A stretch of DNA of 17,422 bases from a virus (lineage: Duplodnaviria; Heunggongvirae; Uroviricota; Caudoviricetes): IMG/VR virus record IMGVR_UViG_2600255005_000002; one strand, written 5' to 3'. Position numbers and translations under genes: made by a program. Below are positions 1-17,422 of this stretch, in pieces. Position 1 is the first letter of the stretch. Each line of letters opens with the position of its first letter. Under the pieces are notes generated by a model that was not told the DNA's origin, ran no database searches, and saw nothing but the letters and a program-made list of their open reading frames with translations.

Positions 1-1506
1 TTAGTAAGTACGAATCTTCGGCGGGAATGCCGGGCGCAGTTTCGGTTCCATGTTGACGCTACGTCGCGTCATGGATTCCGACTCTGGCAGATACAGGGAG
101 TGACACAGCCAGTTTTCATCATCACGCTCCGGGAAGTCGAAGCGGCTATGCGCGCCACGGCTTTCGGTACGGAAGTTGGCAGAAACAGCCGTTGCATACG
201 CCGTTTCCATCAGGTTATCCAGTTCCAGGCATTCAACGCGCTGGGTGTTGAACTCGCTGGAGGTGTCATCCAGACGGGCATTTTTCAGACGCTCGCGGAT
301 CACTTTCAACTGCTCAAGCCCTTTCGCCATCGCATCACCTTCACGGAAGACCGAGAAGTTATGCTGCATACATTCTTGCAGTGCTTTACGAATCGCCACC
401 GGATCTTCACCGTTACGGTTGTTGTTCCAGCGGTTCAGGCGCTCCAGAGAAGCTTCGACATCAGACTCGCTGGCATCGCGCAGTGCGCCCTGTTCGGCGA
501 TAGACTCTTGCAGATGCAGACCTGCCGCACGACCAAAGACCACCAGGTCCAGCAGCGAGTTGCCGCCAAGACGGTTAGCGCCGTGTACCGATACGCAAGC
601 AATTTCACCCACCGCGAACAGGCCAGGAATCACCACATCTTCGCCCTTCTCGTTCACGGTCAGCGCCTGCCCGGTCACTTTGGTCGGAATACCGCCCATC
701 ATGTAGTGACAGGTTGGGATAACCGGAATCGGCTCTTTCACCGGATCGACGTGAGCGAAGGTACGGGAGAGTTCAAGAATGCCCGGCAGACGGGATTCGA
801 GAACTTCTTTACCCAGGTGGTCGAGTTTCAGTTTTGCGTGTGGTCCCCACGGGCCATCACAGCCACGACCTTCACGAATTTCGATCATGATGGAACGCGC
901 CACCACATCACGCCCCGCCAGGTCTTTGGCGTTCGGCGCATAACGCTCCATAAAGCGTTCGCCATGTTTGTTCAGCAGATAACCGCCTTCACCACGGCAA
1001 CCCTCGGTGACCAGTACGCCCGCACCGGCAATACCCGTCGGGTGGAACTGCCACATTTCCATATCCTGCACCGGTACGCCTGCACGGATAGCCATGCCGA
1101 CGCCGTCGCCGGTGTTAATGTGGGCGTTGGTGGTGGACTGATAAATACGCCCTGCTCCGCCAGTCGCCAGCACGGTAGCGCGGGCTTTGAAATAAACCAC
1201 TTCACCGGTTTCGATGCACAGTGCGGTACAACCGACCACTGCGCCATCCTGGTTTTTCACCAGATCCAGCGCATACCACTCGGAGAAAATGGTGGTGTGG
1301 TTTTTCAGGTTCTGCTGATAAAGGGTGTGCAACAGTGCGTGACCGGTACGGTCAGCCGCTGCCGCTGTACGTGCCGCCTGCTCGCCGCCGAAGTTTTTCG
1401 ACTGACCGCCAAACGGACGTTGATAGATACGACCATCATCAAGGCGCGAGAACGGCAGTCCCATGTGTTCCAGTTCCAGAATCGCTTCCGGCCCGGTTTT
1501 ACACAA
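1..1506 (-). CDS. sdhA: Succinate dehydrogenase flavoprotein subunit, 5'-truncated fragment (C-terminal ~500 of 588 residues); reading frame broken at junction near 1505
   Basis: Minus-strand ORF translation ends ...[12 protein letters not shown] and contains the flavoprotein motifs ([21 protein letters not shown]) recognised as E. coli SdhA. The track start at 1506 is TTG at a position where SdhA has an internal Met (..YMCKTGPEA..), so the N-terminal ~87 residues are absent. Stop codon is at 1-3. Confidence 0.9.
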
Positions 1507-1512
1507 GAGTTA

Positions 1513-1911
1513 ATGGAATTGGCAAGTGAATTTTCTGGCATGCTTAAGTCGTCAGGTGTTCGGTCAGCGTTCTTTGTTGAAATGCTGATGCACGGCGGAC
1601 TTATGGCAACAATGAGACGTGTAATGGAAGACCAGAGAAAAGAACCTCCTCAGGTATACGTTTTGTCATCGAAGAAAACTGGGCTAACCAAAATTGGGTA
1701 TTCATCCAACATTCCACAACGCATCAAATCGCTTGGCAACTCTGGACCAGACTGCTTGAAGCTTGAGTGCCTGATCCCTGGTGGAAGAGAAACTGAAAAC
1801 ATGCTTCATCGCAAATTTGCCGCAAAGAGAAAGCACGGTGAATGGTTCGCCCTGTCCAAGGATGACATTGAGGGATTGAAATCTGTAGCGATTACTTCTG
1901 ATGGCTATTAA
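1513..1911 (+). CDS. T5orf172-type (GIY-YIG superfamily-like) small domain protein; start uncertain (ATG at 1513, 1603 or 1624)
   Basis: C-terminal 132 codons of track ORF 100..1911, the only part not antisense to sdhA. Sequence PQVYVLSSKKTGLTKIGYSSNIPQRIKSL...ENMLHRKFAAKRKHGEWFALS shows GIY(VYV)-x11-YIG(KIG) spacing, conserved Arg and Glu, and the terminal GEWF motif typical of T5orf172 domains. GGCGGA lies 3 nt before the ATG at 1603; only weak AAGAG precedes 1513. Confidence 0.6.
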   Translation: MELASEFSGMLKSSGVRSAFFVEMLMHGGLMATMRRVMEDQRKEPPQVYVLSSKKTGLTKIGYSSNIPQRIKSLGNSGPDCLKLECLIPGGRETENMLHRKFAAKRKHGEWFALSKDDIEGLKSVAITSDGY

Positions 1912-2425
1912 TGCTTGTTTAGAGCAATTTTCATAACAACTCTTCATTACAAAGCCCATTTACGGGTGGGCTTGATAATGAAACCGGAATTTATTCTGGG
2001 CCACCAGTTAACGGCAGTACCACGAAACAACCCAAGCCAGTAAGTGGAGAAATAACACCGGCAGCCACTGAAAGATGAACCTCCTGCCTTATGGCAAAAA
2101 AGATTCTTTGTGGTGGCGGACTGATGGAAAGACATCGGTTATTGCAGAGGCCATTCAATGAGTGGTCTCGACAATGGCTTATACCCTACACGGGATAACT
2201 TAACTGATATCCCTTTTAACGGATAAAGGTATTCAAGCCTGACACATCATGCGCTGTATCGTCGCTGTACTCTTGCATTAATTATGACTGTAGCCTGACG
2301 GGGAACTCCTTCTGCGCGAGTGTGCGGGAATAATCAAAAACGATGCACACCGGGGTTACCGGGTACACATATTTCATCATGCCAGCGAGTCCGGTTCTGG
2401 CGCGGAAGAAACCGGACGTTATGAT

Positions 2426-2836
2426 TTAGTGCGGAAATATTTGTGTAGTGTTCTGAATGTTCTCAGTAAATAGTAATGAATTATCAAAGGTATAGTAATA
2501 CCTTTTGTTTTCGTGGATATTTGTAACCCACCGAAAAACTCCTGCTTTAGCAAGGTTTCTTCTGTATTCCTGAAATGTGATCTCTCTGGATTTCAGCTTA
2601 TTAGAGGTCGTTTCTATAAGATGCCTATCCTTTGAAAATTTGACAGACACAATGTTTTTTAGGCCCTTTAATAACACTGTATTATCATTTTTTAATACAA
2701 TATGAACATTCTCTGTGGCTAAATAGTAAATGTAATGTGAGACATTGTGACGTTTTAGCTCAGAATAAAACCATTGATAGTTTAAATCGTTTCGAACTTT
2801 ATCAAATATTTGTTTAAAAATGACTACCTGATCCAT
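2426..2836 (-). CDS. Lambdoid right-arm accessory protein, DUF1398-like (YdfO/YbcV-family homolog); function unknown
   Basis: Minus-strand ORF (track 2426..2851, 141 aa). The internal ATG at 2834-2836 ([11 protein letters not shown]...) has a GGAAGG Shine-Dalgarno 7 nt upstream, whereas the first ATG at 2851 has none. AT-rich; resembles from memory the ORF in the last ~1 kb of lambda and its cryptic-prophage homologs. Confidence 0.6.
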
Positions 2837-2893
2837 AGATAAACCTTCCATGTGATATGAGGGGGCGTAGTCTGCACGATTATCTAAATTGCT

Positions 2894-3127
2894 TCAATCT
2901 GGTCTGACCTGTTTTCTGAGCAATTCAGTAATGTCACTCTTTTCTTTGTTTGCTTCAGGAGAAACTCTTTTTTCTGAGCACAGTCTCCGGCGGCAGGCTT
3001 CAATGACCCAGGCTGAGAAATTCCCGGACCCTTTTTGATCAAGAGCGATGTTAATTTGTTCAATCATTTGGTTAGGAAAGCGGATGTTGCGGGTTGTTGT
3101 TCTGCGGGTTCTGTTCTTCGTTGACAT
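2894..3127 (-). CDS. Small basic ribbon-helix-helix-like protein, DUF3950-like (YnfO/YlcI-family homolog of the lambda right-end ORF)
   Basis: 77-aa minus-strand ORF MSTKNRTRRTTTRNIRFPNQMIEQINIALDQKGSGNFSAWVIEACRRRL... The N-terminal ~50 residues match from memory the small ORF encoded just left of cos in lambda; the C-terminus diverges. Confidence 0.55.
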   Translation of the reverse strand: MSTKNRTRRTTTRNIRFPNQMIEQINIALDQKGSGNFSAWVIEACRRRLCSEKRVSPEANKEKSDITELLRKQVRPD

Positions 3128-3289
3128 GAGGTTGCCCTGTATTCAGTGTCGCTGATTTGTATTGTCTGAAGTTGTTTTTACGTTAAGTTGATGCAGATCA
3201 ATTAATACGATACCTGCGTCATAATTGATTATTTGACGTGGTTTGATGGCGTAGATGCACGTTGTGACATGTAGATGATAATTATTATC

Positions 3290-3510
3290 ATTTTGCGGGT
3301 CCTTTCCGGCGATCCGACAGGTTACGGGGCGGCGACCTCGCGGGTTTTCGCTATTTATGAAAATTTTCCGGTTTAAGGCGTTTCCGTTCTTCTTCGTCGT
3401 AACTTAATGTTTTTATTTAAAATACCCCCTGAAAAGAAAGGAAACGACAGGTGCTGAAAACGAACTTTTGGGCCTCTGTCGTTTCCTTTCTCTGTTTTTG
3501 TCCGTGGAAT
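3290..3510 (+). promoter_or_regulatory. cos: Lambda-type cos site (cosQ - cosN - cosB with Nu1/IHF binding elements), present as a joined circular-form junction
   Basis: Sequence ...GATCCGACAGGTTACG|GGGCGGCGACCTCGCGGGTTTTCGCTATTTATGAAAATTTTCCGG... reproduces the lambda right-end/left-end junction. It lies immediately upstream of Nu1 and includes the 14-bp inverted repeat AAAGGAAACGACAG (3437-3450) / CTGTCGTTTCCTTT (3476-3489). Confidence 0.85.
3327..3338 (+). promoter_or_regulatory. cosN: cosN 12-nt cohesive-end sequence GGGCGGCGACCT (terminase nicking site)
   Basis: Exact 12-mer GGGCGGCGACCT at 3327-3338, flanked by the characteristic GTTACG and CGCGGG. Confidence 0.85.
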
Positions 3511-3515
3511 GAACA

Positions 3516-4034
3516 ATGGAAGTCAACAAAAAGCAGCTGGCTGACATTTTCGGTGCGAGCATCCGTACCATTCAGAACTGGCAGGAGCAGGGAATGCCCG
3601 TTCTGCGAGGTGGCGGGAAGGGTAATGAGGTGCTTTATGACTCTGCCGCCGTCTAAAATGGTATGCCGAAAGGGATGCTGAAATTGAGAACGAAAAGCTG
3701 CGCCGGGAGGTTGAAGAACTGCGGCAGGCCAGCGAGACAGATCTGCAGCCAGGGACTATTGAGTACGAACGCCATCGACTTACGCGTGCGCAGGCCGACG
3801 CACAGGAGCTGAAAAATGCCAGAGACTCCGCTGAAGTGGTGGAAACCGCATTCTGTACTTTCGTGCTGTCGCGGATCGCAGGTGAAATTGCCAGTATTCT
3901 CGACGGGATCCCCCTGTCGGTGCAGCGGCGTTTTCCGGAACTGGAAAACCGACATGTTGATTTCCTGAAACGGGATATCATCAAAGCCATGAACAAAGCA
4001 GCCGCGCTGGATGAACTGATACCGGGGTTGCTGA

Positions 4035-4060
<26 letters not shown>
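3516..4060 (+). pseudogene. Nu1: Terminase small subunit Nu1, disrupted by a -1 frameshift at about 3651-3656 (premature TAA at 3654)
   Basis: ATG at 3516 gives MEVNKKQLADIFGASIRTIQNWQEQGMPVLRGGGKGNEVLYDSAAV then stop. The remainder (KWYAERDAEIENEKL...SEYIEQSG, ending at 4060) continues in another frame. Window has GTCTAAAATGG where lambda (from memory) has GTCATAAAATGG. Confidence 0.85.
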
Positions 4061-7740
<3,680 letters not shown>

Positions 7741-7760
<20 letters not shown>

Positions 7761-9056
7761 TCTCCCGCATATTGCCAGTATGGCCTTTAATGAGCCGCTT
7801 ATGCGCGGGTTTTCTTTTGTGCGCTTGCAGGCCAGCTTGGGATCAGCCGCCTGACGGATGCGGTGTCCGGCGACAGCCTGACTGCCCAGGAGGCACTCGC
7901 GACGCTGGCATTATCCGGTGATGATGACGGACCACGACAGGCCCGCAGTTATCAGGTCATGAACGGCATCGCCGTGCTGCCGGTGTCCGGCACGCTGGTC
8001 AGCCGGACGCGGGCGCTGCAGCCGTATTCGGGGATGACCGGTTACAACGGCATTATCGCCCGTCTGCAACAGGCTGCCAGCGACCCGATGGTGGACGGCA
8101 TTCTGCTCGATATGGACACGCCAGGCGGAATGGTGGCGGGAGCATTTGACTGCGCTGACATCATTGCCCGTGTGCGTGACATAAAACCGGTATGGGCGCT
8201 GGCCAACGATATGAACTGCAGTGCAGGTCAGCTGCTTGCCAGTGCCGCCTCCCGGCGTCTGGTCACGCAGACCGCCCGGACAGGCTCCATCGGCGTCATG
8301 ATGGCTCACAGTAATTACGGTGCTGCGCTGGAGAAACAGGGTGTGGAAATCACGCTGATTTACAGCGGCAGCCATAAGGTGGATGGCAACCCCTACAGCC
8401 ATCTTCCGGATGACGTCCGGGAGACACTGCAGTCCCGGATGGATGCAACCCGCCGGATGTTTGCGCAGAAGGTGTCGGCATATACCGGCCTGTCTGTGCA
8501 GGCTGTGCTGGATACAGAGGCTGCAGTGTACAGCGGTCAGGAGGCCATTGATGCCGGACTGGCTGATGAACTTGTCAACAGCACCGATGCGATCACCGTT
8601 ATGCGTGATGCACTGGATGCACGTAAATCCCGTCTCTCAGGAGGGCGAATGACCAAAGAGACTCAATCAACAACTGTTTCAGCCACCGCTTCGCAGGCTG
8701 ACGTTACTGACGTGGTGCCAGCTACGGAGGGCGAAAACGCCAGCGCGGCGCAGCCGGACGTGAACGCGCAGATCACCGCAGCGGTTGCGGCAGAAAACAG
8801 CCGCATTATGGGGATCCTCAACTGTGAGGAGGCTCACGGACGCGAAGAACAGGCGCGCGTTCTGGCAGAAACCCCCGGAATGACCGTGGAAACGGCCCGC
8901 CGCATTCTGGCCGCAGCACCACAGAGTGCACAGGCGCGCAGTGACACTGCGCTGGATCGTCTGATGCAGGGTGCACCGGCACCGCTGGCTGCAGGTAACC
9001 TGGCATCTGATACCAATAAAGAATTACTTAATACACCTGAAGCTTTACCGGTATAA
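7741..9056 (+). pseudogene. C: Prohead protease/scaffold gpC, N-terminus disrupted by a ~16-bp deletion at about 7799-7800; downstream frame open
   Basis: GTG at 7741 gives MTAELRNLPHIASMAFNEPLM then diverges, with a stop at 7852-7854. The C sequence resumes in frame 0 (ARVFFCALAGQLGIS..SGDSLTAQEALATLALSGDDDGPRQ...). Window has GAGCCGCTTATGCGCGGG where lambda (from memory) has GAGCCGCTGATGCTTGAACCCGCCTATGCGCGGG. Confidence 0.75.
8439..9056 (+). CDS. Nu3: Scaffolding protein Nu3 (in-frame internal start within C), apparently intact
   Basis: ATG at 8439 (MDATRRMFAQKVSAYTGLSVQ...) is in the downstream C frame, which is uninterrupted to the stop at 9054-9056. C-terminus (..AAGNLASDTNKELLNTPEALPV) differs from lambda. 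Confidence 0.5.
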   Translation: MDATRRMFAQKVSAYTGLSVQAVLDTEAAVYSGQEAIDAGLADELVNSTDAITVMRDALDARKSRLSGGRMTKETQSTTVSATASQADVTDVVPATEGENASAAQPDVNAQITAAVAAENSRIMGILNCEEAHGREEQARVLAETPGMTVETARRILAAAPQSAQARSDTALDRLMQGAPAPLAAGNLASDTNKELLNTPEALPV

Positions 9057-9065
9057 GAGGCAGTT

Positions 9066-9398
9066 ATGGCGTCAAAAGAAGAGTTTAACCATTACCAGCC
9101 GCTGGGTAACAGTGATCCGGCTCATACAGCAATTGCGCCTGGCGGATTGAGTGCGAAAACGCCTGCAATGACCCCGCTGATGCTGGATGGCACTACCCGT
9201 AAGCTGGTTGTGTGGGATGGCACCACCGACGGTGCAGCCGTTGGCATTCTGGCGGTTGCTGCTGACCAGACCAGCACCACACTGACGTTCTACAAGTCCG
9301 GCTCGTTCCGTTATGAGGATGTGCTCTGGCCGGAGGCTGCCAGCGACGAGACTAAAAAACGGACCGCGTTTGCCGGAACGGCAATCAGCATCGTTTAA
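9066..9398 (+). CDS. D: Head decoration protein gpD (110 aa), divergent allele
   Basis: 110-aa [44 protein letters not shown]...FAGTAISIV; same length as lambda gpD with scattered substitutions; ATG preceded by AAGAGG. Confidence 0.9.
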
Positions 9399-9415
9399 TC
9401 TTCCCCTTCATCAAC

Positions 9416-9440
9416 AAAGGCCGCCTGTGCGGCTTTTTTT
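9416..9440 (+). terminator. Rho-independent terminator-like hairpin between D and E (GCCGC-CTGT-GCGGC followed by T7)
   Basis: AAAGGCCGCCTGTGCGGCTTTTTTT: 5-bp GC stem, 4-nt loop, seven T residues. Probably a partial terminator or mRNA-stability element, since E must be co-transcribed. Confidence 0.4.
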
Positions 9441-9453
9441 ATGGAAATAATTT

Positions 9454-10479
9454 ATGTCTGTATATACAACTGCAGAATTACTGGCATCGACCCAGCATCA
9501 CTTTAAGTTCGATCCGCTGTTTCTGCGTCTCTTTTTCCGTGAAACCTATCCTTTCACCACGGAAAAAGTCTATCTCTCACAAATTCCGGGACTGGTAAAC
9601 ATGGCGCTGTACGTTTCGCCGATTGTTTCCGGTGAGGTTATCCGATCCCGTGGCGGCTCCACCTCTGAATTTACGCCGGGTTATGTCAAGCCGAAGCATG
9701 AGGTGAATCCGCAGATGACCCTGCGTCGCCTGCCGGATGAAGATCCGCAGAACCTGGCTGACCCGGCTTACCGTCGTCGCCGTATTATTCGGCAGAATAT
9801 GCTGGATGAAAATCTGGCGATTGCCCAGGTCGAAGAGATGCAGGCAGTTTCTGCCGTGCTTAAGGGCAAATACACCATGACCGGTGAAGCCTTCGATCCG
9901 GTTGAGGTGGATATGGGCCGCAGTGCGGCGAATAACATCACGCAGTCCGGCGGCACGGAGTGGAGCAAGCGTGACAAGTCCACGTATGACCCGACCGACG
10001 ATATCGAAGCCTACGCGCTGAACGCCAGCGGTGTGGTGAATATCATCGTGTTTGATCCGAAAGGCTGGGCGCTGTTCCGTTCCTTCAAGGCCGTCAAGGA
10101 GAAGCTGGATACCCGTCGCGGCTCTCATTCCGAGCTGGAGACAGCGGTAAAAGACCTGGGCAAAGCGGTGTCTTATAAGGGAATGTATGGCGATGTGGCC
10201 ATCGTCGTGTATTCCGGACAGTACGTGGAAAACGGCGTCAAAAAGAACTTCCTGCCGGACAACACGATGGTGCTGGGGAACACTCAGGCACGCGGTCTGC
10301 GCACCTATGGTTGCATTCAGGATGCGGACGCACAGCGCGAAGGCATTAACGCCTCTGCCCGTTACCCGAAAAACTGGGTGACCACCGGCGACCCGGCGCG
10401 TGAGTTCACCATGATTCAGTCAGCACCGCTGATGCTGCTGGCTGACCCTGATGAGTTCGTGTCCGTACAACTGGCGTAA
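9454..10479 (+). CDS. E: Major capsid protein gpE (341 aa)
   Basis: 341-aa ORF MSVYTTAELLASTQHHFKFDPLFLRLFFRETYPFTTEKVYLSQIPGLVNMALYVSPIVSGE...; same length as lambda gpE; N-terminal residues differ from lambda (from memory). Confidence 0.95.
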   Translation: MSVYTTAELLASTQHHFKFDPLFLRLFFRETYPFTTEKVYLSQIPGLVNMALYVSPIVSGEVIRSRGGSTSEFTPGYVKPKHEVNPQMTLRRLPDEDPQNLADPAYRRRRIIRQNMLDENLAIAQVEEMQAVSAVLKGKYTMTGEAFDPVEVDMGRSAANNITQSGGTEWSKRDKSTYDPTDDIEAYALNASGVVNIIVFDPKGWALFRSFKAVKEKLDTRRGSHSELETAVKDLGKAVSYKGMYGDVAIVVYSGQYVENGVKKNFLPDNTMVLGNTQARGLRTYGCIQDADAQREGINASARYPKNWVTTGDPAREFTMIQSAPLMLLADPDEFVSVQLA

Positions 10480-10481
10480 TC

Positions 10482-10510
10482 ATGGCCCTTCGGGGCCATT
10501 TTCTCTCTGT
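10482..10510 (+). terminator. Hairpin downstream of E (ATGGCCC-TTCG-GGGCCAT followed by TTTCTCTCTG)
   Basis: Perfect 7-bp inverted repeat with a 4-nt loop at 10482-10499 followed by a pyrimidine/T-rich run, directly after the E stop codon and before the FI ribosome-binding site. Confidence 0.35.
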
Positions 10511-10520
10511 GGAGGAGTCC

Positions 10521-10916
10521 ATGACGAAAGATGAACTGATTGCCCGTCTCCGCTCGCTGGGTGAACAACTGAACCGTGATATCAGCCTGACGGGGACGAA
10601 AGAAGAACTGGCGCTCCGTGTGGCAGAGCTGGAAGAAGAGCTTGATGACACGGGCGACACTGCCGGTCAGGATACCCCTCTCAGCCCGGAAAATGTGCTG
10701 ACCGGACATGAAAATGAGGTTGTATCAGCGCAGCCGGATACCGTGACTGATACGGCTGATCTGGTCACGGTTGTGGCACTGGTGACGCTGCATACTGATG
10801 CACTTCACGCCACGCGGGATGAGGCTGTGGCATTTGTGCTGCCGGGAACGGCGTTTCGTGTCTCTGCCGGTGTGGCAGCCGAAATGACAGAGCGCGGCCT
10901 GGCCAGAATGCAATAA
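10521..10916 (+). CDS. FI: DNA-packaging / head assembly protein gpFI (131 aa)
   Basis: ATG at 10521 preceded by GGAGGAG; MTKDELIARLRSLGEQLNRD...ERGLARMQ. One codon shorter than lambda FI, with a substitution cluster in the middle. Confidence 0.85.
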   Translation: MTKDELIARLRSLGEQLNRDISLTGTKEELALRVAELEEELDDTGDTAGQDTPLSPENVLTGHENEVVSAQPDTVTDTADLVTVVALVTLHTDALHATRDEAVAFVLPGTAFRVSAGVAAEMTERGLARMQ

Positions 10917-10927
10917 CGGGAGGCGCT

Positions 10928-11281
10928 GTGGCTGATTTCGATAACCTGTTCGATGCTGCCATTGCCCGCGCCGATGAAACGATACGCGGGTACATGGGAA
11001 CGTCAGCCACCATGACATCCGGTGAGCAGTCCGGCGCAGTAATACGTGGTGTTTTTGATGACCCTGAAAATATCAGCTATGCCGGACAGGGCGTGCGCGT
11101 TGAAGGCTCCAGCCCGTCCCTGTTTGTCCGGACTGATGAGGTGCGGCAGCTGCGGCGTGGAGACACGCTGACCATCGGTGAGGAAAATTTCTGGGTAGAT
11201 CGGGTTTCGCCGGATGATGGCGGAAGTTGTCATCTCTGGCTTGGACGGGGCGTACCGCCTGCCGTTAACCGTCGCCGCTGA
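10928..11281 (+). CDS. FII: Head-tail connector protein gpFII (117 aa, GTG start)
   Basis: MADFDNLFDAAIARADETIRGYMGTSATMTSGEQSGAVIRGVFDDPENISYAGQGVRVEG...; GTG start preceded by GGGAGG. Confidence 0.85.
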   Translation: MADFDNLFDAAIARADETIRGYMGTSATMTSGEQSGAVIRGVFDDPENISYAGQGVRVEGSSPSLFVRTDEVRQLRRGDTLTIGEENFWVDRVSPDDGGSCHLWLGRGVPPAVNRRR

Positions 11282-11292
11282 AAGGGGGATGT

Positions 11293-11871
11293 ATGGCCAT
11301 AAAAGGTCTTGAGCAGGCCGTTGAAAACCTCAGCCGTATCAGCAAAACGGCGGTGCCTGGTGCCGCCGCAATGGCCATTAACCGCGTTGCTTCATCCGCG
11401 ATATCGCAGTCTGCGTCACAGGTTGCCCGTGAGACAAAGGTACGCCGGAAACTGGTAAAGGAAAGGGCCAGGCTGAAAAGAGCCACGGTCAAAAATCCGC
11501 AGGCCAGAATCAAAGTTAACCGGGGGGATTTGCCCGTAATCAGGCTGGGTAATGCGCGGGTTGTCCTGTCCCGCCGCAGGCGTCGTAAAAAGGGGCAGCG
11601 TTCATCCCTGAAAGGTGGCGGCAGCGTGCTTGTGGTGGGTAACCGTCGTATTCCCGGCGCGTTTATTCAGCAACTGAAAAATGGCCGGTGGCATGTTATG
11701 CAGCGTGTGGCCGGGAAAAACCGTTACCCCATTGATGTGGTGAAAATCCCGATGGCGGTGCCGCTGACCACGGCGTTTAAACAGAATATTGAACGGATAC
11801 GGCGTGAACGTCTTCCGAAAGAGCTGGGCTATGCGCTGCAGCATCAACTGAGAATGGTAATAAAGCGATGA
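11293..11871 (+). CDS. Z: Tail completion protein gpZ (192 aa)
   Basis: MAIKGLEQAVENLSRISKTAVPGAAAMAINRVASSAISQSASQVARETKVRRKL...; ATG preceded by AAGGGGGAT; overlaps U start (ATGA). Confidence 0.9.
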   Translation: MAIKGLEQAVENLSRISKTAVPGAAAMAINRVASSAISQSASQVARETKVRRKLVKERARLKRATVKNPQARIKVNRGDLPVIRLGNARVVLSRRRRRKKGQRSSLKGGGSVLVVGNRRIPGAFIQQLKNGRWHVMQRVAGKNRYPIDVVKIPMAVPLTTAFKQNIERIRRERLPKELGYALQHQLRMVIKR

Positions 11872-12263
11872 AACATACTGAACTCCGTGCAGCCGTACTG
11901 GATGCACTGGAGAAGCATGACACCGGGGCGACGCTTTTTGATGGTCGCCCCGCTGTTTTTGATGAGGAAGATTTTCCGGCAATTGCCGTTTATCTCACCG
12001 GCGCTGAATACACGGGCGAAGAGCTGGACAGCGATACCTGGCAGGCGGAGCTGCATATTGAAGTTTTCCTGCCTGCTCAGGTGCCGGATTCAGAGCTGGA
12101 TTCGTGGATGGAGTCCCGGATTTATCCGGTGATGAGCGATATCCCGGCACTGTCAGATTTGATCACCAGTATGGTGGCCAGTGGCTATGACTACCGGCGC
12201 GACGATGATGCGGGCCTGTGGAGTTCAGCCGATCTGACTTATGTCATTACCTATGAAATGTGA
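11868..12263 (+). CDS. U: Tail terminator protein gpU (131 aa)
   Basis: [56 protein letters not shown]... Confidence 0.9.
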
Positions 12264-12270
12264 GGACGAT

Positions 12271-13011
12271 ATGCCTGTACCAAATCCAGCAATACCGGTG
12301 AAAGGTGCCGGAACCACCCTGTGGGTTTATAACGGGAGCGGCGACCCTTATGCAAACCCGCTTTCAGACGTTGACTGGTCGCGTCTGGCTAAAGTTAAAG
12401 ACCTGACGCCCGGCGAACTGACCGCTGAGTCCTATGACGACAGCTATCTCGATGATGAAGATGCAGACTGGACTGCGACCGGACAGGGGCAGAAATCTGC
12501 CGGAGATACCAGCTTCACGCTGGCGTGGATGCCCGGAGAGCAGGGGCAGCAGGCGCTGCTGGCGTGGTTTAATGAAGGCGATACCCGTGCCTATAAAATC
12601 CGCTTCCCGAACGGCACGGTCGATGTGTTCCGTGGCTGGGTCAGCAGTATCGGTAAGGCGGTGACGGCGAAGGAAGTGATCACCCGCACGGTGAAAGTCA
12701 CCAATGTGGGACGTCCGTCGATGGCAGAAGATCGCAGCACGGTAACAGCGGCAACCGGCATGACCGTGACGCCTGCCAGCACCTCGGTGGTGAAAGGGCA
12801 GAGCACCACGCTGACCGTGGCATTCCAGCCGGAAGGCGCAACCGACAAGAGCTTCCGTGCGGTGTCTGCGGATAAAACAAAAGCCACCGTGTCGGTCAGT
12901 GGTATGACCATCACCGTGAAAGGTGTTGCTGCAGGCAAGGTCAACATTCTGGTCGTATCCGGTAATGGTGAACTTGCTGCGGTTGCAGAAATCAACGTCA
13001 CCGCCAGTTAA
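12271..13011 (+). CDS. V: Major tail tube protein gpV (246 aa) with C-terminal Ig-like domain
   Basis: ATG at 12271 ([30 protein letters not shown]...) preceded by GAGGACG. The track ORF begins 10 codons upstream at an ATG lacking a ribosome-binding site. C-terminal ~90 residues are Thr/Val-rich and Ig-like. Confidence 0.9.
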
Positions 13012-13026
13012 TCCGGAGAGTCAGCG

Positions 13027-13449
13027 ATGTTCCTGAAAACCGAATCATTTGAACATAACGGTGTGACCGTCACGCTTTCTGAACTGTCAGCCCTGCAGCG
13101 TATTGAGCATCTCGCCCTGATGAAACGACAGGCAGAACAGGCGGAGTCAGACAGCAACCGGAAGTTTACTGTGGAAGACGCCATCAGAACCGGCGCTTTT
13201 GTGGTGGCGATGTCCCTGTGGCATAACCATCCGCAGAAGACAAAGCTGCCTTCCATGAATGAAGCCGTTAAACAGATTGAGCAGGAAGTGCTTACCACCT
13301 GGCCCACGGAGGCAATTTCTCATGCTGAAAACGTGGTGTACCGGCTGTCCGGTATGTATGAGTTTGTGGTGAATGATGCTCCTGAACAGGCAGATGACGC
13401 CGGGCCTGCAGAGCCTGTTTCTGCGGGAAAGTGTTCGACGGTGAGCTGA
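13027..13449 (+). CDS. G: Tail assembly chaperone gpG (140 aa)
   Basis: MFLKTESFEHNGVTVTLSELSALQRIEHLALMKRQAEQAESDSNRKF...PVSAGKCSTVS; ATG preceded by GGAGAG. Confidence 0.9.
   Translation: MFLKTESFEHNGVTVTLSELSALQRIEHLALMKRQAEQAESDSNRKFTVEDAIRTGAFVVAMSLWHNHPQKTKLPSMNEAVKQIEQEVLTTWPTEAISHAENVVYRLSGMYEFVVNDAPEQADDAGPAEPVSAGKCSTVS
13425..13431 (+). promoter_or_regulatory. Programmed -1 ribosomal frameshift slippery heptamer G GGA AAG producing the G-T fusion
   Basis: GGGAAAG at 13425-13431 near the 3' end of G, arranged X XXY YYZ in the G frame. The -1 frame continues directly into the T reading frame (FDGELSFALKLAREMG...). Confidence 0.7.
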
Positions 13450-13865
13450 GTTTTGCCCTGAAACTGGCGCGTGAGATGGGGCGACCCGACTGGCGTGCCA
13501 TGCTTGCCGGGATGTCATCCACGGAGTATGCCGACTGGCACCGCTTTTACAGTACCCATTATTTTCATGATGTTCTGCTGGATATGCACTTTTCCGGGCT
13601 GACATATACCGTGCTCAGCCTGTTTTTCAGCGATCCGGATATGCATCCGCTGGATTTCAGTCTGCTTAACCGGCGTGAGGCTGACGAAGAGCCTGAAGAT
13701 GATGTGCTGATGCAGAAAGCGGTAGGGCTTGCCGGAGGCGTTCGTTTTGGCCCGGACGGGAAAGAAGTTATCCCCGCTTCCCCGGATGTAGCGGACATGA
13801 CGGAGGATGACGTAATGCTGATGACAGTATCAGAAGGGATCGCAGGAGGAGTCCGGTATGGCTGA
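13431..13865 (+). CDS. T: gpT portion of the tail assembly chaperone, expressed as the G-T fusion by -1 frameshifting (fusion spans 13027-13865)
   Basis: Frame-0 ORF of 144 codons (..FDGELSFALKLAREMGRPDWRAMLAGMSSTEYADWHRFYSTHYFHDVLL...), with no independent ATG or ribosome-binding site; begins at the slippery site and ends at the TGA overlapping the H start. Confidence 0.8.
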   Translation: MFDGELSFALKLAREMGRPDWRAMLAGMSSTEYADWHRFYSTHYFHDVLLDMHFSGLTYTVLSLFFSDPDMHPLDFSLLNRREADEEPEDDVLMQKAVGLAGGVRFGPDGKEVIPASPDVADMTEDDVMLMTVSEGIAGGVRYG

Positions 13866-16419
13866 ACCGGTAGGCGATCTGGTCGTTGATTTAAGTCTGG
13901 ATGCGGCCAGATTTGACGAGCAGATGGCCAGAGTCAGGCGTCATTTTTCCGGTACGGAAAGTGATGCGAAAAAAACAGCGGCAGTCGTTGAACAGTCGAT
14001 GAACCGGCAGGCGCTGGCTGCACAGAAAGCGGGGATTTCCGTCGGGCAGTATAAAGCCGCCATGCGTATGCTGCCTGCACAGTTCACCGACGTGGCCACG
14101 CAGCTTGCAGGCGGGCAAAGTCCGTGGCTGATCCTGCTGCAACAGGGGGGTCAGGTGAAGGACTCCTTCGGCGGGATGATCCCCATGTTCCGGGGGCTTG
14201 CCGGTGCGATCACCCTGCCGATGGTCGGGGCCACCTCGCTGGCGGTGGCGACCGGTGCGCTGGCGTATGCCTGGTATCAGGGCAACTCAACCCTGTCCGA
14301 TTTCAACAAAACGCTGGTTCTTTCCGGCAATCAGTCGGGGCTGACGGCAGATCGTATGCTGGTCCTGTCCAGAGCCGGGCAGGCGGCAGGGCTGACGTTT
14401 AACCAGACCAGCGAGTCACTCAGCGCACTGGTTAAGGCGGGGGTAAGCGGTGAGGCTCAGATTGCGTCCATCAGCCAGAGTGTGGCGCGTTTCTCTTCTG
14501 CATCCGGCGTGGAGGTGGACAAGGTCGCTGAAGCCTTCGGGAAGCTGACCACTGACCCGACGTCGGGGCTGACGGCGATGGCGCGCCAGTTCCATAACGT
14601 GACGGCGGAGCAGATTGCGTATGTTGCTCAGTTGCAGCGTTCCGGCGATGAAGCCGGGGCATTGCAGGCGGCGAACGAGGCCGCAACGAAAGGGTTTGAT
14701 GACCAGACCCGACGCCTGAAAGAGAACATGGGCACGCTGGAAACCTGGGCAGACAGGACAGCACGGGCATTCAAATCCATGTGGGATGCGGTGCTGGATA
14801 TTGGTCGTCCTGATACCGCTCAGGAGATGCTGATTAAGGCAGAGGCTGCGTTTAAGAAAGCGGACGACATCTGGAATCTGCGCAAGGATGATTATTTTGT
14901 TAACGATGAAGCGCGGGCGCGTTACTGGGATGACCGTGAAAAGGCCCGTCTTGCGCTTAAAGCCGCCCGAAAGAAGGCTGAACAGCAGAGTCAACAGGAC
15001 AAAAATGCGCAGCAGCAGAGCGATACCGAAGCGTCACGGCTGAAATATACCGAAGAGGCGCAGAAGGCTTACGAACGGCTGCAGACACCGCTGGAGAAAT
15101 ATACCGCCCGTCAGGAAGAACTGAACAAGGCACTGAAAGACGGGAAAATCCTGCAGGCAGATTACAACACGCTGATGGCGGCGGCGAAAAAGGATTATGA
15201 AGCGACGCTGAAAAAGCCGAAACAGTCCGGCGTGAAGGTGTCTGCGGGCGATCGTCAGGAAGACAGTGCTCATGCTGCCCTGCTGACGCTTCAGGCAGAA
15301 CTCCGGACGCTGGAGAAGCATGCCGGAGCGAATGAGAAAATCAGCCAGCAGCGCCGGGATTTGTGGAAGGCGGAAAATCAGTTCGCGGTACTGGAGGAGG
15401 CGGCACAACGTCGCCAGCTATCCGCACAGGAGAAATCCCTGCTGGCGCATAAAGATGAGACGCTGGAGTACAAACGCCAGCTGGCTGTACTTGGCGATAA
15501 GGTCACGTATCAGGAGCACCTGAATGCGCTGGCGCAGCAGGCGGATAAGTTCGCACAGCAACAACGGGCAAAACGGGCAGCCATTGAGGCGAAAAACCGG
15601 GGGCTTACTGACCGGCAGGCAGCGCGGGAAGCCACAGAACAGCGCCTGAAGGAACAGTATGGCGATAATTCGCTGGCGCTGAATAACGTCATGTCAGAGC
15701 AGAAAAAGACCTGGGCGGCTGAAGACCAGCTTCGCGGGAGCTGGATGGCAGGCCTCAAGTCCGGCTGGAGTGAGTGGGAAGAGAGCGCCACGGACAGTAT
15801 GTCGCAGGTTAAAAGTGCAGCCACGCAGACCTTTGATGGTATTGCGCAGAATATGGCGGCGATGCTGACCGGCAGTGAACAGAACTGGCGCAGCTTCACC
15901 CGCTCCGTGCTGTCCATGATGACAGAAATTCTGCTTAAGCAGGCAATGGTGGGGATTGTCGGGAGTATCGGCAGCGCCATTGGCGGGGCTGTTGGTGGCG
16001 GCGCATCAGCGTCAGGCGGTACAGCCATTCAGGCAGCTGCGGCGAAATTCCATTTTGCGACCGGAGGATTTACGGGAACCGGCGGCAAATATGAGCCAGC
16101 GGGGATTGTTCACCGTGGTGAATTTGTCTTCACTAAGGAGGCAACCAGCCGGATTGGCGTGGGGAATCTCTACCGGCTGATGCGCGGCTATGCCACCGGC
16201 GGTTATGTCGGTACACCGGGCAGCATGGCGGACAGCCGCTCGCAGGCGTCCGGGAAGTTTGAGCAGAATAACCATGTGGTGATTAACAACGACGGCACGA
16301 ACGGTCAGATAGGGCCACAGGCGCTGAAGGCGGTTTATGACGTAGCCCGTAAGGCGGCAATGGATGTTGTGACCGGGCAGATGCGCGATGGTGGTCTGTT
16401 CTCCGGAGGTGGACGATGA
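13858..16419 (+). CDS. H: Tail tape measure protein gpH (853 aa)
   Basis: 853-aa ORF MAEPVGDLVVDLSLDAARFDEQMARVRRHFSGTESDAKKTAAVVEQS..., with a long central coiled-coil-like Ala/Gln/Lys/Glu-rich region and C-terminal Gly-rich segment; same length as lambda gpH. Confidence 0.95.
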   Translation: MAEPVGDLVVDLSLDAARFDEQMARVRRHFSGTESDAKKTAAVVEQSMNRQALAAQKAGISVGQYKAAMRMLPAQFTDVATQLAGGQSPWLILLQQGGQVKDSFGGMIPMFRGLAGAITLPMVGATSLAVATGALAYAWYQGNSTLSDFNKTLVLSGNQSGLTADRMLVLSRAGQAAGLTFNQTSESLSALVKAGVSGEAQIASISQSVARFSSASGVEVDKVAEAFGKLTTDPTSGLTAMARQFHNVTAEQIAYVAQLQRSGDEAGALQAANEAATKGFDDQTRRLKENMGTLETWADRTARAFKSMWDAVLDIGRPDTAQEMLIKAEAAFKKADDIWNLRKDDYFVNDEARARYWDDREKARLALKAARKKAEQQSQQDKNAQQQSDTEASRLKYTEEAQKAYERLQTPLEKYTARQEELNKALKDGKILQADYNTLMAAAKKDYEATLKKPKQSGVKVSAGDRQEDSAHAALLTLQAELRTLEKHAGANEKISQQRRDLWKAENQFAVLEEAAQRRQLSAQEKSLLAHKDETLEYKRQLAVLGDKVTYQEHLNALAQQADKFAQQQRAKRAAIEAKNRGLTDRQAAREATEQRLKEQYGDNSLALNNVMSEQKKTWAAEDQLRGSWMAGLKSGWSEWEESATDSMSQVKSAATQTFDGIAQNMAAMLTGSEQNWRSFTRSVLSMMTEILLKQAMVGIVGSIGSAIGGAVGGGASASGGTAIQAAAAKFHFATGGFTGTGGKYEPAGIVHRGEFVFTKEATSRIGVGNLYRLMRGYATGGYVGTPGSMADSRSQASGKFEQNNHVVINNDGTNGQIGPQALKAVYDVARKAAMDVVTGQMRDGGLFSGGGR

Positions 16420-16745
16420 AAACCTTCCGCTGGAAAGTGAAACCCGGTATGGATGTGGCTTCGGCCCCTTCCGTAAGAAAGGTGCGCTTTGGTGATGGCT
16501 ATTCTCAGCGAGCGCCTGCCGGGCTGAATGCCGACCTGAAAACGTACAGCGTGACGCTTTCTGTTCCCCGTTGGGAGGCCACGGCGCTTGAGTCGTTTCT
16601 GGCTGAGCACGGGGGCTGGAAATCCTTTCTGTGGACGCCGCCTTATGAGTGGCGGCAGATAAAGGTGACCTGCGCAAAATGGTCGTCGCGGGTCAGTATG
16701 CTGCGTGTTGAGTTCAGCGCAGAGTTTGAACAGGTGGTGAACTGA
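16416..16745 (+). CDS. M: Minor tail protein gpM (109 aa)
   Basis: MKTFRWKVKPGMDVASAPSVRKVRFGDGYSQRAPAGLNADLKTYSVTLSV...; ATGA overlap with the H stop. Confidence 0.9.
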   Translation: MKTFRWKVKPGMDVASAPSVRKVRFGDGYSQRAPAGLNADLKTYSVTLSVPRWEATALESFLAEHGGWKSFLWTPPYEWRQIKVTCAKWSSRVSMLRVEFSAEFEQVVN

Positions 16746-17422
16746 TGCAGGATATCCGGCAGGAAACACTGAATGAATGCACCCGTGCGGAGCAGTCGGC
16801 CAGCGTGGTGCTCTGGGAAATCGATCTGACAGAGGTCGGTGGAGAACGTTATTTTTTCTGTAATGAGCAGAACGAAAAAGGTGAGCCGGTCACCTGGCAG
16901 GGGCGACAGTATCAGCCGTATCCCATTCAGGGGAGCGGTTTTGAACTGAATGGCAAAGGCACCAGTACGCGCCCCACGCTGACGGTCTCTAACCTGCACG
17001 GCATGGTCACCGGTATGGCGGAAGACCTGCAGAGTCTGGTCGGCGGAACGGTGGTCCGGCGTAAGGTTTACGCCCGTTTTCTGGATGCGGTGAACTTCGT
17101 TAACGGAAACAGCGACGCCGATCCGGAGCAGGAGGTGATCAGCCGCTGGCGCATCGAACAGTGCAGCGAACTGAGCGCGGTGAGTGCCTCTTTTGTACTG
17201 TCCACGCCGACTGAAACGGATGGTGCTGTTTTTCCGGGGCGCATCATGCTGGCTAATACCTGCACCTGGACCTATCGCGGTGATGAGTGCGGTTATCACG
17301 GTCCGGCTGCAAATTGTATTCTGCCGGAGCAGAAAGCAATTAACGTTTGGAGAACTGCGGACGACGACGTGCTTTACGCAGACCGACTTTCTTACGTTCA
17401 ACCTGACGAGCGTCACGAGTAA
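16745..17422 (+). CDS. L: Minor tail protein gpL, 3'-truncated: L-derived sequence ends at about 17297-17310, after which the open frame reads through antisense rpsI sequence to the window end
   Basis: MQDIRQETLNECTRAEQSASVVLWEIDLTEVGGERYFFCNEQNEKGEPVTWQGRQYQPYPIQGSGFELNGKG...CTWTYRGDECGY matches lambda gpL (232 aa in lambda). The following residues (HGPAANCILPEQKAINVWRTADDDV...) are not L; no stop codon within the window. Confidence 0.75.
   Translation: MQDIRQETLNECTRAEQSASVVLWEIDLTEVGGERYFFCNEQNEKGEPVTWQGRQYQPYPIQGSGFELNGKGTSTRPTLTVSNLHGMVTGMAEDLQSLVGGTVVRRKVYARFLDAVNFVNGNSDADPEQEVISRWRIEQCSELSAVSASFVLSTPTETDGAVFPGRIMLANTCTWTYRGDECGYHGPAANCILPEQKAINVWRTADDDVLYADRLSYVQPDERHE
17340..17422 (-). 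CDS. rpsI: 30S ribosomal protein S9, 3' end only (last 26 codons plus stop); gene continues beyond the window
   Basis: Minus-strand translation of 17343-17420 is TRDARQVERKKVGLRKARRRPQFSKR followed by TAA (17340-17342), identical to the C-terminus of E. coli S9 as remembered. Confidence 0.8.
   Translation of the reverse strand, partial: TRDARQVERKKVGLRKARRRPQFSKR

Follow-up and report, generated by a model that had tools for sequence, protein, structure and literature searches.

Gene C of the lambda-family prophage of Escherichia sp. TW11588, which encodes the prohead protease, has probably lost 16 bp between two 5-nt direct repeats, through a slipped-strand or microhomology-mediated deletion. 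The lesion would be an ordinary case of microhomology-mediated pseudogenisation of a well-known gene, or possibly an error of the draft assembly, and appears to be nothing new in kind. The stretch of DNA analysed here (17,422 nt, hereafter the window) was traced by exact-protein look-ups to the draft genome of TW11588, a soil isolate from Puerto Rico that belongs to cryptic clade IV (E. ruysiae) (PMC12446263, PMC3466228, bioRxiv 10.1101/2021.09.22.461432). The draft (GCA_000208585.2, AEMF01000001.1) dates from 2011 and is deposited as a single 4.46-Mb 'contig'. The sdhA segment of the window has at most 96.7% identity to E. coli, consistent with an E. ruysiae origin.

The lambda-family prophage piece occupies window positions 1506-17309, with the genes nu1, A, W, B, C/Nu3, D, E, FI, FII, Z, U, V, G/T, H, M and L in that order. 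Aligned to lambda (J02459), window 3327-17309 follows the order of lambda 1-13993 throughout, with 96.7% identity, from the left end of cos onwards:

3327-3338, plus strand: left end of cos (GGGCGGCGACCT), equal to lambda position 1

The lambda gene C/Nu3 corresponds to window 7741-9056, with 96.2% identity to lambda 4377-5730 (about 96% over the whole gene). As in lambda, it lies in the order A-W-B-C/Nu3-D-E, begins with a GTG that overlaps the end of B, contains an internal Nu3 start, and encodes an S49 domain with a serine that aligns to that of SppA. The parts of the locus are as follows:

7741-7854, plus strand: 5' remnant of the prohead protease gene C, with a GTG start, 21 native codons (MTAELRNLPHIASMAFNEPLM), 16 out-of-frame codons and the stop TGA at 7852-7854
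7795-7799, plus strand: deletion junction, formed by the sole retained CCGCT, where 16 nt are gone (GATGCTTGAACCCGCT, equivalently CCGCTGATGCTTGAAC)
7794-9056, plus strand: rest of C, in a different frame from the native start and open from 7794, with a longest ORF from GTG 7863 to 9056 (397 aa)
8439-9056, plus strand: nested scaffold gene Nu3 (205 aa), with an ATG start to which lambda 5132 maps, in frame with the 3' part of C

Alignment of C to lambda J02459 and to the prophage of E. coli strain 20 contains exactly one 16-column gap, at window 7799/7800 (lambda 4477-4492), and the absent bases read GATGCTTGAACCCGCC in both references. With 5 nt of microhomology, all positions of the break from 7794/7795 to 7799/7800 are equivalent. 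The C frame from GTG 7741, which should run through the protease and scaffold-like domains, is not continuous: translation from the native GTG ends after 37 codons, while re-insertion of the 16 nt yields an uninterrupted C of 443 codons. A preliminary description of this DNA, made from its letters and a comparison with lambda, had claimed that C is disrupted by a deletion of about 16 bp with a stop at 7852-7854, and that the remainder of the gene is open in another frame; the alignments and translations bear out both points. The window also differs from lambda at the 3' end of C, where it carries a variant 13 nt longer. Judged by its sequence, the locus belongs with the gpC/S49 family by homology, synteny, domain content and catalytic serine, but it lacks an intact frame. 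With the native frame broken and the domain in another frame, it is classed as a C pseudogene rather than a functional member of the gpC group.

The intact allele from which the deletion can be read is found in two IMG/VR contigs, UViG_2563366798_000003 (L020) and UViG_2802429227_000002 (L022). Apart from the 16-nt gap, L020 shows no difference from the window over roughly 6900-9012, and L022 is nearly identical as far as 11120, with 0-1 mismatches from about 6900 to 9012 and 10000, respectively. At the site, both read GAG-CCGCT-GATGCTTGAAC-CCGCT-TATGCG (alternatively written GAGCCGCTGATGCTTGAACCCGCTTATGCG), and the variant ending in GAACCCGCT TATGCG is carried by three IMG/VR contigs, these two among them. 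The GCCAGT and GCT variants beside the site are common to L020, L022 and the window. L020 and L022 differ from the window in retaining the CCGCT pair with its 11-nt spacer, and in having intact nu1 and B genes.

The two parental CCGCT copies lie 16 nt apart, and the window retains one of them, without the other copy and the spacer. Since the parent has a perfect CCGCT pair and the window a single CCGCT, the deletion took one repeat copy plus the spacer. The preliminary description had named CCGCT and CCGCCT as the repeats, by comparison with lambda. This holds only in part: against lambda there is no exact microhomology at the junction (T/G...C/T), whereas the parental allele, with GCT in place of GCC, has the perfect CCGCT pair. 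Microhomology of at least 5 nt is found in only 2 of the 948 distinct 16-nt deletions possible in C (0.2%). Loss of one repeat and the spacer, together with this rarity, is what a slipped-strand or microhomology-mediated deletion should leave behind, and so supports the replication slippage proposed in the preliminary description. Slipped-strand deletion between short direct repeats is a classic process in E. coli, of which lacI provides the type example. The lesion in C resembles such deletions in the loss of one repeat with its spacer, the perfect 5-nt junction microhomology and the short span, here deduced from a comparison of alleles. Mechanistically, mispairing of the two perfect 5-nt repeats (CCGCT...11 nt...CCGCT) would remove 16 bp and keep one copy.

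A different origin, to which we give a minor though appreciable chance, is that C of the TW11588 strain is in truth intact or otherwise interrupted, and that the 16 nt were lost during draft assembly, merging or concatenation. The prophage piece is flanked by two joints that do not look biological:

1505-1506, no strand: abrupt joint, with sdhA on the left (minus strand, 1-1505, lacking its 5' end) and, on the right, prophage DNA whose first bases fall within a GIY-YIG nuclease gene
17309-17310, no strand: abrupt joint at which the tail gene L, cut off close to its 3' end, meets the rpsI 3' flank

Neither an att site nor an IS lies at the joint with sdhA (1505/1506). Because the sdhA and rpsI loci are distant from each other in E. 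coli, the two joints probably stem from concatenation of draft contigs, and the joint at 1505/1506 is probably such a concatenation rather than a genuine disruption of sdhA. At the left joint the first ~87 codons of sdhA are missing, and the fusion creates a spurious 603-aa ORF (100-1911, plus strand). At the right joint, lambda homology of L ends at 17309 and the rpsI stop lies at 17340, with rpsI-rplM-zapE following in the source record.

An erroneous record would also fit the frameshifts elsewhere in it. Two further prophage genes carry 1-nt deletions that are private to the TW11588 record:

3516-4060, plus strand: small terminase gene nu1, frameshifted by the loss of one A at 3653/3654 (GTCATAAAA to GTCTAAAA)
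6160-7760, plus strand: portal gene B, split into ORFs of 135 aa and 398 aa by the loss of one T at 6408/6409 (GGGTCTTTTTT to GGGCTTTTTT)

With the missing base restored, nu1 encodes 181 aa and B 533 aa. In the record, nu1, B and C of the prophage are all frameshifted, two of them by private 1-nt lesions in a draft that also has a frameshifted zapE, and the contig-like joints cut off the ends of the element and its regulatory region. In nu1 and B alike, the lost base is the same as that of a homopolymer starting one position further on (C[A]TAAAA and G[T]CTTTTTT). This shared context resembles that of a systematic error in sequencing or consensus calling, though the mutations could be genuine. 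The zapE gene, about 1 kb to the right of the window (source record, L040 11651-12780), is split into ORFs of 222 aa and 159 aa by two extra bases, which sit in adjacent A runs (E. coli TCAGAAAC vs TW11588 TCAAGAAAAC); from its sequence, it could be either a real pseudogene or a homopolymer indel error of the draft. Taken together, the abrupt joints, zapE and the private indels of nu1 and B make indel errors in the TW11588 record plausible. For C itself, an assembly error would agree with the joints that flank the prophage piece, the homopolymer-type extra bases in zapE, the privacy of all three phage frameshifts (nu1, B and C) to the record, and the near absence of substitutions alongside relatively many indels against the nearest relatives. 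Against it, the removal of 16 nt is not an error of the homopolymer type, and the loss comprises exactly one unit and the spacer of a perfect 5-nt repeat, a length at which no assembler overlap or k-mer step operates; a de Bruijn or overlap assembler would thus have no obvious route to a 16-nt loss at a 5-nt repeat. Moreover, an independent Illumina assembly (L017) matches the window immediately downstream at 4,349 of 4,350 positions without gaps, and, zapE aside, about 17 kb of flanking core genes show no break. The opinion in the preliminary description that a 16-nt loss is unlikely to be a sequencing artefact appears reasonable, with the quality of the record as a real caveat.

The split of B was also considered as an inherited or 'hot-spot' frameshift, since seven other assemblies have the same division into 135 and 398 aa. 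At the DNA level, these cases are four different -1 mutations (a G loss, T6 to T5, T4 to T3, and the single-T loss of the window), and this idea was rejected; the exact-ORF look-up for the split returns any -1 shift in that stretch. The shifts in L015 and L024-L028 (equivalent to window 6400-6480) come from unrelated short-read assemblies, lie within about 70 nt of one another (GGG to GG, T6 to T5, T4 to T3), and may be real mutations or assembly errors. The corresponding look-up for the 46-aa fragment of nu1 was uninformative, as its hits were chiefly genes cut off where a contig ends, and that for gpA was too unspecific (3,587 blocks).

A third account of the 16-nt loss invokes an insertion sequence. 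It supposes that an ISCro1-like element of the IS66 family once occupied the site, and that its imprecise loss between the CCGCT repeats, or the repair of a transposase-induced break, left the deletion behind. The suggestion comes from a sister allele in Logan ERR13369248 (L017; 1 mismatch in 4,350 nt), which starts with 29 nt of an ISCro1-like terminal repeat (L017 1-33), and in which this IS end abuts GAACCCGCTTATGCG, inside the missing 16 nt. In E. coli CFSAN018748, an independent ISCro1 insertion lies 3 nt away in the same orientation (L018 2491-2545, 3095-3140). The native upstream sequence TTTAATGAGCCG agrees with TTAAATGAGCCG, the terminal repeat of the IS, in 11 of 12 positions, but this match is unexceptional, as 26 of 6,954 windows score equally. 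Neither an IS remnant nor an 8-bp target duplication is found in the window, where native C lies on both sides of the junction. The look-ups at this spot return only 5'-disrupted C alleles or junctions, so that much of the coincidence reflects ascertainment, and the intact L020 and L022 are about as near to the window as the IS-bearing L017. In addition, slippage across 11 nt is far likelier than slippage across an element of roughly 2.7 kb. On this balance, an origin as a by-product of IS loss is very improbable. Equally improbable is the broader proposition that the missing 16 nt are a preferred ISCro1-like target in lambdoid protease genes, and that the TW11588 deletion is a scar of transposase action or of imprecise IS loss. 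A variant in which an assembler jumped over the IS and so dropped the 16 nt was rejected on reasoning, as no overlap or k-mer route yields the product.

IS ends at the C site are seen only in L017 and L018, and no IS-to-C junction was found in scans of GTDB representatives or IMG/VR. The two ISCro1-like insertions in lambdoid C genes occur in unrelated strains, 3 nt apart and adjoining TTTAATGAGCCG. The site near TTTAATGAGCCG may be a preferred target of IS66-family elements, and the clustering of IS66 insertions at the C site offers a small lead on target choice in this family.

Deletion by slippage between the CCGCT repeats is the reading that we retain, and its effects on the protease and the scaffold are considered below. 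In lambda, gpC is the viral protease (PMC3224144, PMC10695390), and C, B and nu1 are each essential (PMC10695390). The remainder of C in the window scores 150.5 bits for Peptidase_S49 (PF01343, Pfam cut-off 24.9). This S49/SppA-like region spans residues 81-298 of the restored C and lies entirely downstream of the break, as does Ser166 (lambda numbering), which occurs in the motif NCSAG and aligns with the nucleophile serine of AASGG in B. subtilis SppA (3rst). With the domain and Ser166 both downstream of the break, no full-length gpC can be produced from the native start; the -16 shift, which brings a stop after 37 codons, would leave full-length gpC unavailable, and protease function would presumably be lost.

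It is conceivable that the lesion is not null, and that ribosomes stopping at TGA 7852-7854 restart at GTG 7863 to yield a gpC that lacks its first 46 residues and keeps the protease domain. A distance of 8 nt separates this stop from the next GTG in frame, and the resulting 397-aa ORF contains the complete S49/SppA-like region including Ser166. However, the sequence ahead of GTG 7863 offers no convincing Shine-Dalgarno (GGA only), the record has lesions in B and nu1 as well, and the arrangement is seen in no other genome among those searched, so that nothing points to maintenance of a shortened gpC. We consider such a restart extremely unlikely.

The nested Nu3 gene has escaped the frameshift. 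As stated in the preliminary description, its start at 8439 and its frame are preserved: lambda 5132 maps to this ATG, the 205-aa ORF runs to the stop shared with C, and the 59 bases upstream of the ATG are identical to lambda. Being internal and in frame with the 3' part of C, with a start of its own, Nu3 would still be translatable from the late transcript, and Q-modified late transcription should limit polarity on it. A scan for a hairpin with a T-run just 3' of the junction, which might act as a terminator, found no terminator-like site in the window. The further claim that scaffold is made while the protease is lost is only partly upheld. The reading frames agree with it, but since nu1 and B are also frameshifted and the prophage piece comes with neither a late promoter nor a Q region, a clean 'protease-minus, scaffold-plus' phenotype is not implied.

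The deletion allele is known from one record, AEMF01000001. The C region is present in 3,229 complete genomes of E. coli, and at the best place in each of these records the deletion allele has no match of at least 99% identity; the 40 best matches listed all span 367 nt, vs 351 nt for the query. The junction 23-mer is absent from GTDB species representatives, IMG/VR and JGI metagenome contigs. At the 3' end of C/Nu3 (window 9030-9065), the 13-nt longer variant encodes …NTPEALPV vs …NTPV in lambda, and is shared by the phages Perceval and PhiR47_2, the sole phage records that fully cover the query.

Cryptic or defective lambdoid prophages of Escherichia, of which DLP12, Rac and Qin are examples, share with the window the lambdoid late-gene block and the breakage of several essential morphogenesis genes. 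Compared with these, the decay in the window is minimal, consisting of three small indels in sequence that otherwise hardly differs from that of intact phages, and part of it may be record error. The lesion in C may represent neutral decay of a prophage that was probably already defective. If real, it is routine prophage decay, adding one more prophage disabled by a small deletion between short repeats; if not, it is a flaw of an old draft. For annotation, C should be labelled a pseudogene and Nu3 annotated separately. The TW11588 draft itself warrants care, given its apparently concatenated contigs, its several frameshifts, and an sdhA that is truncated only at the joint.

Two other features of the prophage piece deserve mention. 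The segment 1506-3400, which holds the 3' part of the GIY-YIG nuclease gene, a DUF1398 gene and YlcI/YnfO genes, agrees at every base (100% identity) with another, mosaic prophage that E. coli GmM066 carries at icd, compared with only ~95% identity to other E. coli prophages, which suggests that this module may have been exchanged recently between phages of E. coli and E. ruysiae. In the tail region, the slippery sequence GGGAAAG (13425-13431) lies close to where G (13027-13449) ends, just ahead of the stretch it shares with T (13431-13865), and thus the programmed -1 frameshift that serves the tail chaperone in lambda appears to be conserved in the window.
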